The notes beneath the pieces were generated by a model. The model was given only the letters and a program-made list of their open reading frames with translations, was not told the origin of the DNA and did not search any database. Shown here piece after piece: positions 48,636 to 57,444 of a DNA stretch of 64,000 nucleotides. The position numbers and the translations under genes are program-made. Position 1 is the first letter of the stretch. Each line of letters opens with the position of its first letter. This DNA comes from an uncultured Planctomycetaceae bacterium (GTDB taxonomy: Bacteria; Planctomycetota; Planctomycetia; Isosphaerales; Isosphaeraceae), in NCBI GenBank assembly GCA_963833985.1, contig CAWIAD010000002.1:2464001-2528000 (forward strand), read 5' to 3'.

Positions 48636-49988
48636 GGCGAGCGGCAGGTCTTAGTTTCCCTGCTGCTCGGTGATTCTCGGTTTGATAGTGATGTCATACT
48701 TCGGCAGGGTCGCCGATCTTTCCAATCGAGCTTCGTACTGCTTCATCTCCTTGGCGGCGACTCGAACGCCATCGGGATACTCGCCGTGGAGGCGTTTCAC
48801 GATCGGGTGCCGGCGCTTCCAGGTCATTCGTAGGGCGCATTGCAGGACCACCTTCAGGCAGTTCAGTAACACGCCGTTCCATTTCTTCTCCAGGGCCGAC
48901 CAGCAGCGTTCAATCGGGTTGTATTTGCTGTGGTAGGGGGGATAGTACACCAACCGAATCTCCAACCCCGACCAGTCGGCAAACTGGACCATCCGTTTCA
49001 GGAACTGGGTCCGCCGACCGGAGTTCTTGGGGCCGTTGTCCAGATAGATCACCAGGCGCTTGACATGCCCGAAGCCTGACCGGACCTGCAGCCACCACAT
49101 GCGGAGCGCATCGGCCCAAGCGTCGCTGGTCTCGCGCGATCCGAACAGGAGCATCAATACCCCGGTCACCCGCATCACGATGCCGAAAGGGACCAGCTTC
49201 TCCTTGGCTGGCGGATCGTGATCCCATCCCTTGGCCACTTGACCGTCGGCGGCGGTCCTGGTTTTTCCCCCCACGAGCGTAATCGCCCAATCCCACCTTC
49301 GCCTTGGTGTCCATGGAGATCTCCAGCGCCTCAGGATCGTCCCGAGCCTGTTGCTGCACCTCCTTCACGTTGGCGAAGATCGCGTCGGTCTCCTTGGTCT
49401 TCTTCAGCGGCCTGCCCTTCTGAATCCGCTTGAGGCGGAAGTTCATGCGGTTGAGGATGTCCCGCATGGTGCGCTCGCTGGGCAACGCGTCTCGGGGATA
49501 GCCCTTGTCAATCAAGGCTCCTCGCACCTCCGCCGCCGACAGGTTCATGTACCGTCGCGACGACTTCAGTTCCGGATCGGCGTAGGTATGGGGCTCGACG
49601 ATCGCACGGATGTCCGCAGCCAGTTGCGGGTCCTTCTCTTCGCTGCGCAGCCGACCTCTCGCGACGAAATTCTCGAGACAGCGTATCCCTTGACGGGCCT
49701 CGTGCAGTCCTTTCAGGACCGTTTCTCGTCCCCAGCCGAAGCGTCGTTCAGCTTGGCGGGCGCTGCCTTCACAGAGTTCCGTGGCCACCTCGGCCATGAA
49801 CAATCGGCGCTGGTATCCGGTCAGCCGTCTGGCTCCCGAACAGATCAAGGCGTCGAGGCACTCAGTGGATCCTTCCATGACGGTTCCCCTCCCTGGTGTA
49901 CAGACGGCAACAGGCCAGGCTCTAGCCTTGCATCATCTCACAGAACGGGGAAGCTCAATTCCGGGTAGATCTCGACGTGCCGGTCGCC
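48636..49988 (-). mobile_element. Insertion sequence, ISAzo13 family, 1353 bp
   Basis: Imperfect terminal IRs GGCGAGCGGCAGGTC (48636) and GACGTGCCGGTCGCC (ends 49988). 3-bp direct repeat TTA at 48633-48635 and 49989-49991. Confidence 0.92.
48651..49878 (-). CDS. ISAzo13 (Rhodopirellula-type) DDE transposase, split at a G6A5 run
   Basis: ISMDTK, LDNGPKNSGRRTQF and YYPPYHSKYNPIERCW. Two overlapping ORFs join near 49262-49272. Confidence 0.9.
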
Positions 49989-51814: not shown

Positions 51815-54283
51815 TCACGGCAGCGGGTTCAGTGGGTCAAGGGGCGCTCGGAAGTGAAACGGAACAGCTTGTCGTGCAGAATGGCGGCGTAGTCGCGCGA
51901 GCTGGTTGCGGGGCGAGAGGCGCAGCGCGGTCGTCGCCTCGGCCAGCGCCCCCCTCAGCGTTCGTTCGATCACGGGGTAATCCAGGACCTGCCAGCCGTT
52001 CTTGGCTTCCTGTTCGAGCGCCGTGCACAGGATGAGGTGAAACCAGGGCTCGTTGGCGTCCCTTCTTGCCAGGGTCCTGGCGAAGGCCGACAGCCATGCG
52101 GCGGTGTGGCGTGCGTTGTCCAGGCGCTTTTCCCGCCGTTGCGCCGCGGCCCGACTCGCCATCATGCAGGCCAGCTTATAGCCAGCGATGGGTACCACGG
52201 AATGATTCAGCCCCAGTGATTCGCAGTTCGATTCCAGTGCCCGGATGACCGCGTCGGCCCGGGCACCTGGTGCCGCGCTTCCGTTCTCTCGGCCCGCCGC
52301 TTCCATCGAGATTGCGCTTGGGTAGACCAGTTCAGCAATCCAGCAGCCGAGATGCTCACTGGCCGGCGCAGGAACATCCTCATCGGCCGGGAACCTGCGG
52401 ATCGCTGCCCGGATCATCGCGAACGAGCGCTCATCGGCCGCCAGGTCCAACCTCGCAACCGCCGCGATGAGCCCGATCAAGGGGGCGCATGCGCCATCCT
52501 TGCCCGGGCTCTCGAGCATGCGAATGTTCGTTTCCAGCAACTTTCGCCGCTGATCCTCCAGTCCGCGGGCACCCAGCCGAGTGGCGATCGATCGTCGCAA
52601 TGAACCGAGTAACAGGATGGTCTCCAGCCGTCGCGGGTCCTGAACCAGGCTTGCCAGAACTTCGCCGGCACATTCGGTCCGGGCGAGCGCCGCGTCAAAC
52701 CGGCCCTGAACAAGGTCGCACTGGCCCAGGTTCAGCAGGGCGCGACTGTACGCTTCGTCGACATCCGGGTCGTGCACGGTTTTTCTTCGCTCCTCCAGGA
52801 TCTCCAGGCTGTCCTCGAGCAGTGCGCGCGCCTCGGAGAACCCCCCGCGCGACAAAAAGGCGATCGCCAGCTTGCTCTCGAGGTCACAGATCGCGACGAC
52901 GTTGGAGGTGGCGAACTGTCGATCCTGGCGTGGCCTGAGAGTCAGCTCGCGGACAACGTGGGAGGCCTCGCCAAGGCGTTCGGACATGAGCATCCGAGGT
53001 GTATCGACGGTCGCTGTGATGAGATCGACGAGATCGTGCACTGCGCTAAAGGCGGCCTTGTCGCTCTCGATCGCATAAGCCAGGGCGGTCTCGGCACGCG
53101 CGCGGTCAGCCTCGGAAAGCCGCCAGAGAGCAAGCAATCCGACAAGGCTTGACGCCACGGTGAACGCGAGCAAGCCCAGCAGCGAGGCGAATGCAGGGCG
53201 TCGCCGGCACCATCTCAGTACGTGGTCCAGAGTCGAGGCGGGACGTGCCCGGATCGGAAACCCATCAAGCCAGCGCTCGATGTCGTCAGCCAGCGCGCCG
53301 GCGGAAGCGTATCGCCGTTGCGGGTCCTTCCGCAGGGCAGTCGCGGCAATGGTTTCCAGATCGCGCGGCAGCCCCGGGACCAGCGCTTGCGCGGGGGCGG
53401 GCTCGCGTGTACGAACCAGGTCGAGCGTCTCGATCACCGATGCGGCCTGGAACGGAGGACGCCCCGTCAACAGGGCGTACAGGGTTGCCCCCAGGGCAAA
53501 GACGTCGGCAGGCGGCCCGATCCCGCCAGGACCGCCGACAATCTGCTCCGGCGCCATGTACGAGGGTGTGCCCCGCGGTTCGGCGGGACCGTTCGCGGTT
53601 GCGACCGGGTCGTCGCCCACCCAGGCAATTCCGAAGTCTGCGAGCATCGGCGTGACCCGGTCCCAACCCTCCTCGGGGAGGCCGTCGAGCAAGATGTTTG
53701 AAGGCTTGATGTCAAGATGCAACGTCCCGGCGTAGTGGATCTGCTCGACGGCCCGAGCGACCTGCACCATCAACCCGGCCGCGACGCGCGCCGGTAAGGG
53801 GCCGTTCACGCGCTCCGCAAGACTTCCCCCGGCGATCAGATCGAGCACAAGATAAAGGCAGCCGTCCCGTTCGCCCGCTTCGTGAATCTGGACCACGTTG
53901 GGATGGCGAACTCGCCCGATTGCCCGCGCCTCGCGAAGCCAGCGCCTGCGATCCTCCGCACCGATGCCGATACTCGCCCGAACCACCTTGATGGCCACAC
54001 GGTGCGCCAGGCGCGGCTGCCACGCCTGATAGACGACGCCCATGGCGCCGCGCCCCAGCTCGCGTTCGATCACGAAGCCGGGGAACGCAAGGGGGTCCAA
54101 CGGCGTGACAACGGTTGCGGGGCCCGGTTCCTCGCCATGGGACAAAGAAACCGCCAGCCGTTCCAGGATCTCCTGGCAACTCGCGCACTCCTGGACGTGA
54201 GACTCCATCGCCGCGAATCCGCAGCCGCTCGATGGGTGACACGCGACATGGCTGAGCGTCTCGGGACTGGGACATGGCGACAT
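51815..54283 (-). CDS. Ser/Thr protein kinase with N-terminal zinc-finger (HxxxCxxC), TM helix and TPR-like C-terminus
   Basis: HVQECASC, LGRGAMGVVY, VAIKV, HLDIKPSN, DFG, GTPSYMAPEQ, DVFALG and RDLETI. Confidence 0.92.
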   Translation of the reverse strand: MSPCPSPETLSHVACHPSSGCGFAAMESHVQECASCQEILERLAVSLSHGEEPGPATVVTPLDPLAFPGFVIERELGRGAMGVVYQAWQPRLAHRVAIKVVRASIGIGAEDRRRWLREARAIGRVRHPNVVQIHEAGERDGCLYLVLDLIAGGSLAERVNGPLPARVAAGLMVQVARAVEQIHYAGTLHLDIKPSNILLDGLPEEGWDRVTPMLADFGIAWVGDDPVATANGPAEPRGTPSYMAPEQIVGGPGGIGPPADVFALGATLYALLTGRPPFQAASVIETLDLVRTREPAPAQALVPGLPRDLETIAATALRKDPQRRYASAGALADDIERWLDGFPIRARPASTLDHVLRWCRRRPAFASLLGLLAFTVASSLVGLLALWRLSEADRARAETALAYAIESDKAAFSAVHDLVDLITATVDTPRMLMSERLGEASHVVRELTLRPRQDRQFATSNVVAICDLESKLAIAFLSRGGFSEARALLEDSLEILEERRKTVHDPDVDEAYSRALLNLGQCDLVQGRFDAALARTECAGEVLASLVQDPRRLETILLLGSLRRSIATRLGARGLEDQRRKLLETNIRMLESPGKDGACAPLIGLIAAVARLDLAADERSFAMIRAAIRRFPADEDVPAPASEHLGCWIAELVYPSAISMEAAGRENGSAAPGARADAVIRALESNCESLGLNHSVVPIAGYKLACMMASRAAAQRREKRLDNARHTAAWLSAFARTLARRDANEPWFHLILCTALEQEAKNGWQVLDYPVIERTLRGALAEATTALRLSPRNQLARLRRHSARQAVPFHFRAPLDPLNPLP

Positions 54284-54314
54284 GGGGCAATCTCGCACCC
54301 GCCTGGGAACCTGG

Positions 54315-54791
54315 TCAATTCTCGACTCGTCGGACTTCCGGCTCGCCCTGCGATTCGGTCAGGATCCGCTGGCTCTCATCGCGCAGCATGCGGCTCACTC
54401 GCTTCTCGGCTGCAAAATCGGCGTAGTACGAGATGCCGGCATCCTCCGCGCTCTCTCAGACCGACTTCCCTTCGATGGCAATGTTCCAGAACACCTGCCA
54501 CGTCCGTTCGTGCACGCGGCCTCGCACGGTGTTCTGAACCTTCTCGGCCTCGCGGAGCAGGCTTGTCTGCTCGCGAGCCACGCTCTCCTCGACCTAGAAC
54601 GTCATGGAAGGGGCCTCCACAAGCACTGCCCCTGGCTGATCCTCCAGAGAGGCAACAGGATTGGCTTTCTGCTTCCGCAGCAGGTCGATGGCCCGCGATT
54701 GACACAGCCGTCAGAGCCATCCGCGAAACGTCTTTCCCGGATCGTAGCGGTAGGTTCGCATGCGTCGCGCGACCTCGATCCAGACCCGCTG
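54315..54791 (-). pseudogene. ECF sigma factor pseudogene (5'-truncated, three in-frame stops)
   Basis: The minus frame reads QRVWIEVARRMRTYRYDPGKTFRGWL*RLCQSRAIDLLR...VHERTWQVFWNIAIEGKSV*ESAEDAGISY. Stops at 54711-13, 54594-96 and 54456-58. Lies directly upstream of the kinase. Confidence 0.85.
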
Positions 54792-55024
54792 GTGATAAGG
54801 TAAGGTGATAAGAAGGTGATAAGGGGCCACCCACACTTCTAGGTGATAAGAAGGTGATAAGGGGCCACCCACACTTCTGGCCTCCTACTGGACAAACGGC
54901 TCCGACTTGGATACGTTTGTTCATTATGAGATGGGCCAGGTCGAAGTCGACCGCAGGAGGATAAGAGCAGGAGGATAACAAGGATAAGCAAGGATAAGCA
55001 CAGGATAAGGGCCACCCACACTTC
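54791..55024 (-). repeat. Left array: GAAGTGTGGGTGGCCC motif x3 with reiterated TTATCACC / TTATCCT tails (read on the minus strand)
   Basis: GCCACCCACACTTC at 54826, 54864 and 55011; GGTGATAAG x5; GGATAA(G/C) x5; perfect 38-bp tandem at 54803-54840 and 54841-54878. Confidence 0.9.
54889..54917 (+). promoter_or_regulatory. Candidate promoter, copy 1 (TGGACA-17-TACGTT), overlapping a CAAACG...CGTTTG inverted repeat
   Basis: The hexamers, 17-nt spacing and IR are conserved in the diverged second copy while the spacer sequence differs. Confidence 0.5.
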
Positions 55025-55034
55025 CTTCAGGTAC

Positions 55035-55063
55035 TGGACAAACGGTGCCGGATTAGGTACGTT
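55035..55063 (+). promoter_or_regulatory. Candidate promoter, copy 2 (TGGACA-17-TACGTT), for the HUH nuclease gene
   Basis: Lies about 70 bp upstream of the ATG at 55136, with RBS CAGGAG in between. Confidence 0.55.
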
Positions 55064-55135
55064 TGATCATCACTAGGCGGACCAGGTCGATGTCGGACCG
55101 GCCACCGATCGTCAGTCGATCAGGAGCACACCAGC

Positions 55136-56504
55136 ATGGCACGGCGGAATCGTGCGGAAATCGTCGTCGCGGATGAGATGGGGGTCTACCACTGTGTGCA
55201 GCGGGTCGTACGCAGGGCGTTTCTCTGCGGGGTCGATCCGCTCTCAGGCAAGTCCTACGATCATCGCAGGGCATGGATCCGGGACCGCCTCGAGTCGCTC
55301 GCGGGGCTCTTCGGCGTGGAGATCGCCGCCTTTGCGGTGATGTCCAACCATCTTCATGTGATGCTCCGCATCCGTCCTGATGTGGTCATGCTCTGGCCCG
55401 ATCACGAGGTCGCCAGGCGCTGGCTGGTCCTCTTCCCCGGCCGGGTGGAGACCACGCCGGATCCCTCCACAATCCCGACCGCCATGGCCTGGCCGGTCGA
55501 ACAGCACGGTCCAAGCCAGGCACCCGGCACCACGGCCTTGCCCTCCAGCGGAGCATTCACCGACCCGCTGGAACAGGCGGTCGCCATCCTCACCGCGGAT
55601 CCTTCGCTGATGGCAACGATCCGCGGCCGACTCTCCAGTCTCTCATGGTTCATGCGTGCCCTGGCCGAGCCGATCGCCCGCCGGGCCAACCGCGAGGACC
55701 GCTGCACCGGCCGCTTCTGGGAGGGCCGGTTCAAGTCGCAACGGCTGCTGGACGAGGCGGCCTTGCTGGCGTGCAGCATCTACGTCGATCTGAACCCGAT
55801 TCGCGCCGGGCTGTCTGATCGACCGGAGACCAGCGAGTTGACTTCCGCCCACGAGCGGATCATGGCCCTGCTCCAGGATGTCCCAGCCCACTGTGCACCC
55901 AGCGCATCACGTCTTGACGTCAGTCCTGTGGCAGTGGCACGGCCGAACGAGGCTCTGTCGTCTGCGGCGGAACAGGATACGCAAGTGCTTGTGGGAGAAC
56001 CCCCTGTGGCGTCACCGGCTGCGGAAACCGTCCGCCGGGCCCGACCGCACGAACACGAACGCGAGCAGGCTCACATGACGCTCCGCGATGGCTGGCTCAG
56101 CCCGATCGAGCTGGATGCAGCGCTCCGAACCGCTGACCACAGCCATGGCAGAACCGCGAGCGGCCGCGGCCGAGACGCCGGGCGAGCCGACGCGAGCGCG
56201 GCGGGCCAGCAATCGCGGGCTGCTGCCGATGACGCTGGAGAACTACCTCGATTTGCTGGACTGGACGGGTCGACAATTGCGAACCGGGAGCCTTGGCGTG
56301 ATACCCGCGGGGCTGGCGTCGCTTCTCGATCGGCTGCAAATCTGCGCCGGGACATGGCTGGAGACAGTGACGCGGTTCGGCCGCCGGTTCCACCGCGCGG
56401 TGGGGCTGGCAGACCACCTGAAGGCGGAAGCTCAGCGGCTGGGCGTGACCTGGCTGCACGGCGTCCGCTGGAGCCAGCAAGCGTTCGCACCACCCGGTTC
56501 GTGA
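55136..56504 (+). CDS. REP-associated tyrosine transposase (RAYT)-like HUH/Y1 nuclease, long form (frameshift near 56118)
   Basis: GVYHCVQRVVRRAFLCG, HUH motif FAVMSNHLHVML, SLSWFMRAL.EPIARRANRED.CTGRFWEGRFKSQ and catalytic Tyr in YVDLNPIRAG. The C-terminal 'YLDLLDWTGR...G.IP......L.RL' is in ORF 56088..56504. Confidence 0.88.
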
Positions 56505-56724
56505 GCCCGTGGGTCCCCGCCTCGTTTCGAGCGATCGCGGCAAGTCTGGTAGGCCAGGTCTGATCGAGGCCGTGTGACCATCGCGGTCCTCGATTCGCGA
56601 ATTCGGCACCGATGGCCAGTGCTCCGTCGCGTGGAAGGATTGTCCACGCCCGCGCAGCGAGCCTCCGCACGTTTTTGCTCCTCCAAGTTCGGGTCTGGGA
56701 TGTCGGGACGCGCCGGGAGTGACT

Positions 56725-57197
56725 CACCGCCGCGGCGCGAGCATCCTGCAGAATGTGGGTGGCACCAATCAGACACTTGCAGAATGTGGGTGGCACCAAT
56801 CAGACACCAATCAGACACTCCAATCAGACACTGCACCAATCAGACACCACCAATCAGACACCCCAATCAGACACCAATCAGACAGCACCAATCAGACACC
56901 GCCGCGGCGCGAGCATCCTGCAGAATGTGGGTGGCACCTAACTTGCTGTGCAGAACGTGTTGCAGAACGTGGGTGGGACTTAACTTGTTGCTTAACTTGT
57001 TGCAGAACGTGGGTGGCACTTAACTTGCACTAACTTCTGCAGAACGTGTTGCAGAACGTGGGTGGCACTTAACTTGTTGCTTAACTTGTTGCAGAACGTG
57101 GGTGGCACTTAACTTGCACTCAGAACGTGGGTGGCACTTAACTTGCTTGGGTGGCACTTAACTTGCTTAACTTGCACTTAACTTGTATTTTAACTTC
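56725..57197 (+). repeat. Right array: GCAGAA(T/C)GTGGGTGGCAC motif x~9 with reiterated CAATCAGACAC (x9) and TAACTT(G) (x~13) tails
   Basis: Read directly from the sequence. Also contains a 42-bp direct repeat (56725-56766 and 56897-56938) and an 83-bp direct repeat with one mismatch (56949-57031 and 57038-57120). Confidence 0.95.
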
Positions 57198-57415: not shown

Positions 57416-57444
57416 TTGACACGAGTCAGAGTTGCGGATAGATT
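57416..57444 (+). promoter_or_regulatory. Candidate sigma70 promoter for the glycosyltransferase operon
   Basis: TTGACA (57416-21), 17 nt, TAGATT (57439-44). Confidence 0.5.

Follow-up and report, generated by a model that had tools for sequence, protein, structure and literature searches.

An HUH-Y1 transposase gene with arrays of short repeats at both of its ends was found in a 64,000-nucleotide stretch of contig CAWIAD010000002.1 from an uncultured Planctomycetaceae bacterium; this whole stretch is called the window here, and coordinates refer to it unless a contig of the genome (G000) is named. The element is TIRtron-like, with a long HUH-Y1 gene between inverted short end motifs that read GG(G/A)TGGC(A/C)C outward. 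Copies of this core, each followed by a short tail, are repeated head to tail at both ends, and the repeat units stop at a nearly fixed distance outside the core and begin at very different positions inside it. We propose that these arrays were left as scars when the enzyme acted on its own ends and did not complete a move. The parts of the locus are:

54791-57197, no strand assigned: the entire TIRtron-like HUH-Y1 element with stuttered ends, sharing 99.2% identity with a second copy over 1929 bp (54841-56769)
54791-54878, minus strand: left outer array, with two cores (54824-54839 and 54862-54877), the tail CTTATCAC(C) five times and a 38-bp higher-order duplication
54862-54953, minus strand: long unit, an older diverged duplicate of the left leader and core, identical at 73/95 positions to 55009-55100
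54958-55024, minus strand: left inner array, with a core at 55009-55024 and the tail TTATCCT five times, the same in the paralog
55136-56504, plus strand: HUH-Y1 gene (TnpA_Y1 class 2, subclass-2.3-like), with the HUH codons at 55349-55357 and the catalytic Tyr codon at 55781-55783
56747-56900, plus strand: right array 1, with two cores and the tail CAATCAGACAC nine times
56900-57197, plus strand: right array 2, with seven cores (one a GGGAC variant, one truncated) and the tail TAACTTG eleven times
54273-54792, minus strand: host gene severed by the element; what remains is the 3' part of an ECF-type sigma factor gene, interrupted by in-frame stops

All cores point away from the gene, as the initial annotation had described, with 3 on the minus strand to its left and 9 on the plus strand to its right. 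The exact left cores, GAA-N1-2-GTGGGTGGC(A/C)C, have their 5' ends at 54839, 54877 and 55024, and seven exact right cores lie at 56751, 56782, 56923, 57005, 57054, 57094 and 57123; the GGGAC variant (56970) and the 5'-truncated copy (57148) bring the right-hand number to nine. Exact GTGGGTGGC(A/C)C sites occur 10 times in the whole window, compared with 0.3 expected from 20 Markov resamples. The four reiterated tails were found again (TTATCACC five times; TTATCCT five times; CAATCAGACAC eight times, or nine when read as CAATCAGACA; TAACTTG eleven times, or 13 when read as TAACTT). The unit counts given earlier cannot be taken at face value, as they are raised by perfect higher-order duplications of 38, 89 and 340 bp that overlie the simple units. 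The 89-bp duplication lies within right array 2, the first unit of which extends about 40 nt inward, and the outer edge of the left outer array runs directly into the ECF sigma gene. The repeats had also been called non-palindromic, which is true of the window's own ends (the two innermost have weak predicted DNA folding, with dG of -1.8 and -2.7 kcal/mol) but often not of relatives, where an imperfect hairpin can have the core as its loop and inner stem.

The gene at 55136-56504 is not the single open frame it was thought to be: a one-base insertion near 56118 causes a +1 frameshift ahead of the conserved C-terminal domain. Its identity as an HUH/Y1 nuclease stands, as both H72-L73-H74 and Y216 (in YVDLNP) are encoded. 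An intact second copy of the gene (G000:C2:551448-552815; 455 aa, protein P0003) lies in a paralog element (G000:C2:551153-553080) that is 99.2% identical over 1929 bp, with flanks and outer arrays that differ from those of the window copy. The inner tails are common to both copies and the divergence is confined to the outer units. Because the window gene is broken, recent growth of its arrays needs the intact paralog in trans, or else predates the frameshift. A multi-copy insertion sequence (IS; ends TTCTACTGTATC, CTAA duplicated) is inserted in the right tail of the paralog (G000:C2:553080-554580).

The enzyme belongs to TnpA_Y1 class 2 (RAYT-like HUH-Y1) by its HUH motif, its single Tyr in Y---NP and its TnpA_REP-like predicted fold. 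P0003 has HLH at 72-74 and YVDLNP at 216-221, and H74, Y216, N220 and P221 are invariant among 78 aligned homologues. The best structural match of its AF2 model (pLDDT 77.8) is E. coli TnpA_REP 4er8 (Z 11.7, rmsd 2.9, 158 residues; the next match has Z 5.9), which is also top-ranked by Foldseek, with an E value of only 0.013. Profile matches were below their cut-offs: the window copy fell under that of Pfam Y1_Tnp, and the NCBIfam models REP_Tyr_transpos (RAYT) and IS200 gave 39.7 bits vs 80 and 13.9 bits vs 55, respectively. IS200/IS605 membership is excluded by Y---NP (not Y---Q) and by a length of 455 aa (not a short core-only TnpA). The model places strands at 16-23, 61-68, 72-79 and 198-204, inserts at about 24-42 and 80-197, and a helical tail at 367-449, i.e., the subclass-2.3 shape: a long protein (455 aa) in which insertions follow beta1 and beta3 and the C-terminal region is extended. 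The enzyme is a putative member of TnpA_Y1 subclass 2.3, assigned by length, insertions, C-terminus and Alteromonadales relatives; homologues with 42-45% identity occur in Shewanella, Pseudoalteromonas, Catenovulum and others, and the closest named homologues are Isosphaeraceae, in agreement with a planctomycete host. For the C-terminal domain, no Pfam family was found in more than 3/53 members and the Atlas matches, below 0.9, are unnamed; its fold matches are AraC/homeodomain helix-turn-helix proteins with Z of at most 4.4, which serve as a lead only. A polymerase-like function of the protein was considered and rejected, the Thg1/TLP matches (Z 5.2-5.5) being inside the stated background.

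The polarity of the repeat units is clearest in right array 1, where all 9 tiles stop at +10 to +12 relative to the core end and begin at -18 to +1. Among 75 core-bearing repeat pairs, 24 were simple adjacent duplications, of which 19 were kept (2 palindromic-REP pairs, 1 higher-order and 2 redundant pairs were dropped); unit counts were taken from other analyses, as an automatic LZ parse was noisy in the low-complexity tails. In the 19 duplications the outer junction is found at +9 to +15 relative to the core and the inner extent ranges from 16 to 545 nt, the longest unit reaching from the tail to the middle of a transposase gene. The copies overlap at the junction by no more than 1 nt in 18/19; microhomology is mostly missing. 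Differences between copies are rare inside (3/920) and in the core (1/171), more frequent at -10 to -15 (5/114), and concentrated in the tail (17/152), which is changed in 8/19 duplications; this corresponds to about 11% tail change vs 0.3% inside. The end of the units at a fixed distance beyond the core agrees with the repeated nicking and rejoining that had been postulated for this locus. A telomere-like, template-free addition does not fit, since all long units, of up to 545 nt, are copies of the element end.

The 44 junctions showed no dinucleotide preference at the inner ends (CT in 5/44 and 4/44), and a C|T cleavage signature was not seen there. A strong requirement for a hairpin was only weakly supported: pairing between arm and tail positions 1-5 amounted to 253 vs about 198 expected (94 ends) and own tails folded better than swapped ones (-4.96 vs -4.38 kcal/mol, 0/200), but after shuffling within genomes the excess fell to 181 vs 171 (p 0.02) and 174 vs 168 (p 0.05). 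As the complementarity of arm and tail is slight within genomes, a hairpin would help at most modestly.

The core was then traced in the flanks of homologous genes (79 loci, from the best 80 of 103 matches). TGGGTGGC was the leading 8-mer on the outward strand, with 73 flanks vs 6 inward, and of the flanks long enough to score, 66/73 upstream and 29/54 downstream ones have GG(G/A)TGGC(A/C)C facing outward. The upstream core lies 55-136 nt from the start of the match and faces inward in only 2/73. Tails are reiterated at 22/95 first cores of homologues vs 99/4840 random flank positions. Tandem cores were found in 7/7 same-genus genomes with the gene and in 1/7 without it (a doubtful match; n=14 in total); a tandem core of the window type occurred in 0/11 genomes of other genera with more distant homologues, and two other genomes without a listed match had one hit each. 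Very long arrays belong to an element in another genome (G001), with 46 cores upstream (1.3 kb) and 29 downstream (1.0 kb). Within G000, a scan for the core with tails, as had been suggested, returned 91 exact GTGGGTGGCCC sites, 41 of them with a reiterated tail, whereas chance copies of the 11-mer in an unrelated 22-copy IS had a reiterated tail in 0/22. There are also 15 outward core pairs without a gene in G000 (spacing 15-227 nt), several with tail arrays of their own; examples of such miniature elements are C2:498886-499015, C2:490521-490539 and C1:1127245-1127262. The intact paralog P0003 would act in trans on these pairs and on the broken window copy.

The flanks of the homologues contain outward cores that vary with the protein clade, as the initial annotation had expected. 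Because the core is conserved, faces outward, keeps a near-fixed distance to the gene, co-occurs with it and changes with the clade, it is the probable cis-site of the nuclease family, and this comparative evidence supports its earlier reading as the recognition site. A GTCAA sequence, which on the gene strand reads TTGAC and resembles a -35 box, was noticed at most 20 nt inside the core in 55/66 upstream vs 1/30 downstream ends (loci L002-L080). The core may overlap the transposase promoter, permitting autoregulation; the window's own left end is without the GTCAA box.

The same anatomy, with different cores, is found in two other Y1 families of G000 and in marine Gammaproteobacteria. A second Y1 family in G000 (about 14 copies, 87-100% DNA identity, about 40% protein identity to the query) has the upstream core TGC(A/C)TGTCC and a tail that differs at each of 14 aligned upstream ends and is mostly reiterated. 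In one case (G000:C2:3954876-3955993), a 557-bp tandem duplication runs from the tail of this family to the middle of the gene and yields a truncated and a full copy. Two shorter RAYT-like genes (G000:C2:3098982 and C2:2427284), which we read as putative subclass-2.1-type genes, carry large outward arrays of the core AAAAATGAACTGACAC with the same polar anatomy. In this family (core CTGACAC), an independent replicate, 32/38 outer cores match for 8-10 nt outward and 7-30 nt inward. By eye, all 13 matching records of a plasmid collection have an outward core-like motif at one or both ends, and duplicated cores or tails are clear in 10/13. The array architecture was present in named complete records of Pseudoalteromonas, Photobacterium, Catenovulum and Vibrio. 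Two Pseudoalteromonas strains (idh 93% and transposase 83% identical) carry the element at one site downstream of idh with 6 vs 2 upstream cores and different tails, so the gene persists at its site and only the arrays around it are altered.

Two further kinds of repeat in G000 were noted. A palindromic REP-like repeat, GACAGGCA-(A/G)GAA-TGCCTGTCC, forms 13 clusters (e.g., C2:5714537) with tail reiteration in 4/13, from which the stutter may extend to REP-associated enzymes. An IS200-like gene (G000:C2:1859932) and 3' ends of the second Y1 family (e.g., downstream of C2:1522266) share GGTCGGGCTCACGCCCGAGG with duplications of variable length; no TGC(A/C)TGTCC core was seen at these 3' ends.

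At the left end of the window element the tail is fused into the ECF sigma gene, and a search for the missing 5' part of that gene did not find it in the genome. Host sequence starts at CCAGCGGG (+7 to +9); in the intact ECF genes of relatives (e.g., L129:8597-9211, in which Sigma70_r2 is present) CCAGCGGG is preceded by gagctttg and not by the element tail. The left end of the paralog is likewise fused into a truncated frame, which we take to be Uma2-like. Of 18 flank matches, five gave interpretable host junctions, all with the flank starting at +8 to +16 and an unrelated tail (5/5); the remaining 13 start at a distance or reflect joins inside the element or IS insertions of later date. At the 6/6 junctions comparable with an uninterrupted homologue this rules out that the tails are captured target DNA, and with it the idea that the arrays log past targets. 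As the tails are not host-derived and the inner ones are common to both copies, they appear to travel with the element and mutate, and do not keep a record of targets; the outermost tail of the paralog may include a few host bases. A clean pre-insertion allele was found for neither copy. The ECF gene is followed by a kinase gene in relatives, and the gene in the right flank of the window element is not adjacent in the stretches compared.

We consider it somewhat probable that the arrays arise by a nick on the inward-reading strand, 8-15 nt outside the core, followed by extension over a variable length and re-joining. The enzyme would bind the core, as suggested by its family-wide conservation and co-occurrence with the gene, and would nick about 8-15 nt outside it on the strand reading tail'-core'-gene 5'->3', keeping the 5'-phosphotyrosine on the element side. 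This places the best-fitting nick on the strand opposite to the one implied by the initial annotation. A host polymerase would extend the free 3'-OH inward by 1 to >500 nt while displacing the old strand, and the new 3'-OH would attack the phosphotyrosine. What is observed is the tandem copy, whose outer edge is fixed and whose inner edge varies; the chemistry of its joining would follow known HUH reactions. Attack by a foreign or resected 3'-OH would instead fuse the end to other DNA with loss of the adjacent DNA, as may have happened to the Uma2-like gene and the ECF gene. The arrays would grow through repeated rounds in which the tail changes locally in an error-prone way, and ordinary slippage or recombination would add the higher-order duplications. 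A nick, 3'-OH extension and attack on Tyr-5'P are the steps of a model for BIME amplification (PMC3333891, Fig. 7B, in the available text), and attack of a 3'-OH on the 5'-phosphotyrosine was shown in vitro for TnpA_REP (PMC8266576, available part).

Several observations weigh against this nick-extension reading. On the outward strand, 32/44 junctions have T or C as the final tail-side base, which could favour an outward-strand nick, and E. coli TnpA_REP needs C as the attacking 3' base and cleaves C|T (PMC8266576, available part). The fixed and variable ends alone leave the nicked strand ambiguous, since two cuts on the opposite strand leave an identical product. The fidelity of the inner part is partly built in, the extents having been found by matching. 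By the 7-mer test, 73/95 homologue ends lack tail reiteration; the same-genus genomes do not count as independent cases, and completeness is only 65-92% for several of those without a match. Movement of the whole element with both tails, and the rewriting of tails, are left unexplained by the model.

The two-cut model, which we regard as rather unlikely, is the account of BIME amplification as written in the available text of PMC3333891: an enzyme bound to the core on the outward strand would cut a loose inner site and then the tail of the new or sister strand, and the 3'-OH of the tail would join the inner 5'-phosphotyrosine. It yields an identical polar product and would account for the pyrimidines at the tail ends, and TnpA_REP is described, in the available sources, as cutting on the 5' as well as the 3' side of its site, and also at some distance from it. 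However, two cuts at the same dinucleotide should share a base pattern, whereas the inner ends have no such preference and hardly overlap, and many inserts of 1-4 nt resemble the tail end (by eye), which fits brief extension better. A telomerase-like process seems improbable to us; here a nick blocked by the enzyme would be the template end, where the polymerase runs off, re-anneals upstream and recopies many times in a single event, while error-prone or partly untemplated additions rewrite the tail. The very long irregular arrays of G001, the C/T-rich junction fillers, the altered tails in 8/19 duplications and the growth after the split of the two G000 copies, limited to outer cores, would suit it, but the predicted re-annealing microhomology is mostly missing, units of 190 and 545 nt are faithfully copied, and no polymerase-like fold rises above background.

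Slippage or unequal recombination by the host alone, on a G/C-rich and weakly folded motif, with the enzyme explaining only the presence of the motif, is very unlikely. The perfect higher-order duplications are of the kind it would produce, the arrays at the broken window gene are nonetheless large, and the G-runs of the core could stall polymerases. Yet it does not predict a fixed outer edge, a 30-fold variation of the inner edge or the lack of microhomology; the 11-mer is inert in the unrelated IS, and the unrelated cores CTGACAC, TGCMTGTCC and GGGTGTC beside Y1 genes behave identically. That the arrays are an artefact of assembly or sequencing is hardly credible. One sequencing run (share 0.07) gave two short contigs over 55070-55364 only, outside all arrays, which speaks neither for nor against it. 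The architecture recurs in independent assemblies, the named complete records among them, the inner arrays are identical at two loci of G000, and two strains compared at an orthologous locus have different arrays.

The element does not represent a new class and instead fits the TIRYT/TIRtron idea (Di Nocera, De Gregorio and Rocco 2013, PMC3733652). In the available text of that paper, TIRtrons combine a RAYT-like gene with non-GTAG inverted repeats at an approximately constant distance, and the repeats also occur without a gene as singles, dimers and groups, comparable to the 15 pairs here. GGGGWSAS is common to some, not all, TIRs there; the inward motif here is GGGGCCAC (7/8, left) or GTGCCAC (right), not exactly GGGGWSAS, with an inverted match of about 11-16 nt. 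Polar head-to-tail stutter, locus-specific tails, a nick position or a mechanism are not described in the text available. The enzyme resembles subclass 2.3 of Quentin et al. 2018 (10.1101/279083 = PMC6006769), which, as far as that text is available, comprises the longest class-2 proteins, with Y---NP, insertions after beta1/beta3 and a long C-terminus, is prevalent in Alteromonadales/Chromatiales and has several diverged copies per genome, Alteromonadales relatives being found here as well. The same text gives no REP-like flanking element for subclasses 2.1 and 2.3, whereas a conserved outward core and arrays are present here.

Compared with E. coli TnpA_REP and REP-BIME (Ton-Hoang et al., PMC3333891; Corneloup et al., PMC8266576; available parts), the closest solved fold (4er8) is shared, as would be the chemistry and the published model in which nicking, extension and rejoining add tandem units. 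Unlike that system, there is no GTAG-tagged hairpin, the units are of 1-545 nt and not whole BIMEs, a C|T signature is missing, and the tail mutates between adjacent copies. The initial annotation was right to set the arrays apart from classic REPs, as the window ends are weakly folded and without a 5' GT(A/G)G tag and the REP_Tyr_transpos score is below cut-off, and also from CRISPR, as the sequence between cores consists of copies of the element's own end and the tails are not host-derived at the 6 junctions (no search for cas genes was made). One-ended transposition is a feature of IS91. Replitrons and rolling-circle HUH transposons (Craig 2023, PMC10288648, available text) are similar in HUH copying with one fixed and one 'fuzzy' end and in ends at rearrangement breakpoints, but they are eukaryotic, have a Rep-type enzyme and direct termini, and take their fuzzy sequence from outside the element; end arrays are not described in that text. 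The literature searched contains no description of polar arrays or of a subclass-2.3 target; clustered TIRs of this kind could be shown in the supplements of 10.1101/279083 or in PMC3733652 (Fig. 9; Additional files 4 and 5), which the search did not cover. Arrays are not described in PMC3337134, nor in the available parts of PMC5581495 and PMC3116915.

In the survey of 10.1101/279083 (available text), subclass 2.1 was present in about 15% of strains and subclass 2.3 in <3%, and a DNA target was found for neither. The arrays reveal a target motif and the position at which a cut is predicted (+8 to +15), which makes a decade-old question about this enzyme group testable, and they would be the in vivo footprint of a nick-extend-rejoin model previously just proposed for BIME amplification. 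If so, these enzymes would also generate tandem duplications locally, truncate genes and contribute hypervariable DNA to large environmental genomes, and might serve as a tool for site-anchored duplication. A wider reading, about which we are doubtful, is that subclass 2.1/2.3 HUH-Y1 enzymes are processive 'end writers': at a 9-11-nt motif and with a host polymerase they would add copies of their own ends outward in a telomere-like manner (up to 46 cores, 1.3 kb), rewrite the 8-12-nt tail at about 30 times the inner rate, partly templated on the hairpin arm, to give each end a barcode, and delete or fuse neighbouring genes. Were this true, they would amount to a programmable, motif-anchored DNA duplicator and diversifier that is widespread in Planctomycetota and marine Gammaproteobacteria.

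Other features were recorded in the window. The decaying ECF sigma gene (54273-54792, minus strand) lies upstream of a Ser/Thr kinase-TPR gene (51815-54298, minus strand), and the pair is intact in relatives. An ISAzo13-family DDE transposase extends across two frames at 48651-49878 (minus strand), and a tandem repeat at 2075-2294 (36 bp, 6.1 copies, 95% identity) has no relation to the HUH-Y1 element. To the right of the element, a strong sigma-70-like promoter match (TTGACA-17-TAGATT; 57416-57444, plus strand) is followed by a glycosyltransferase-2 gene.

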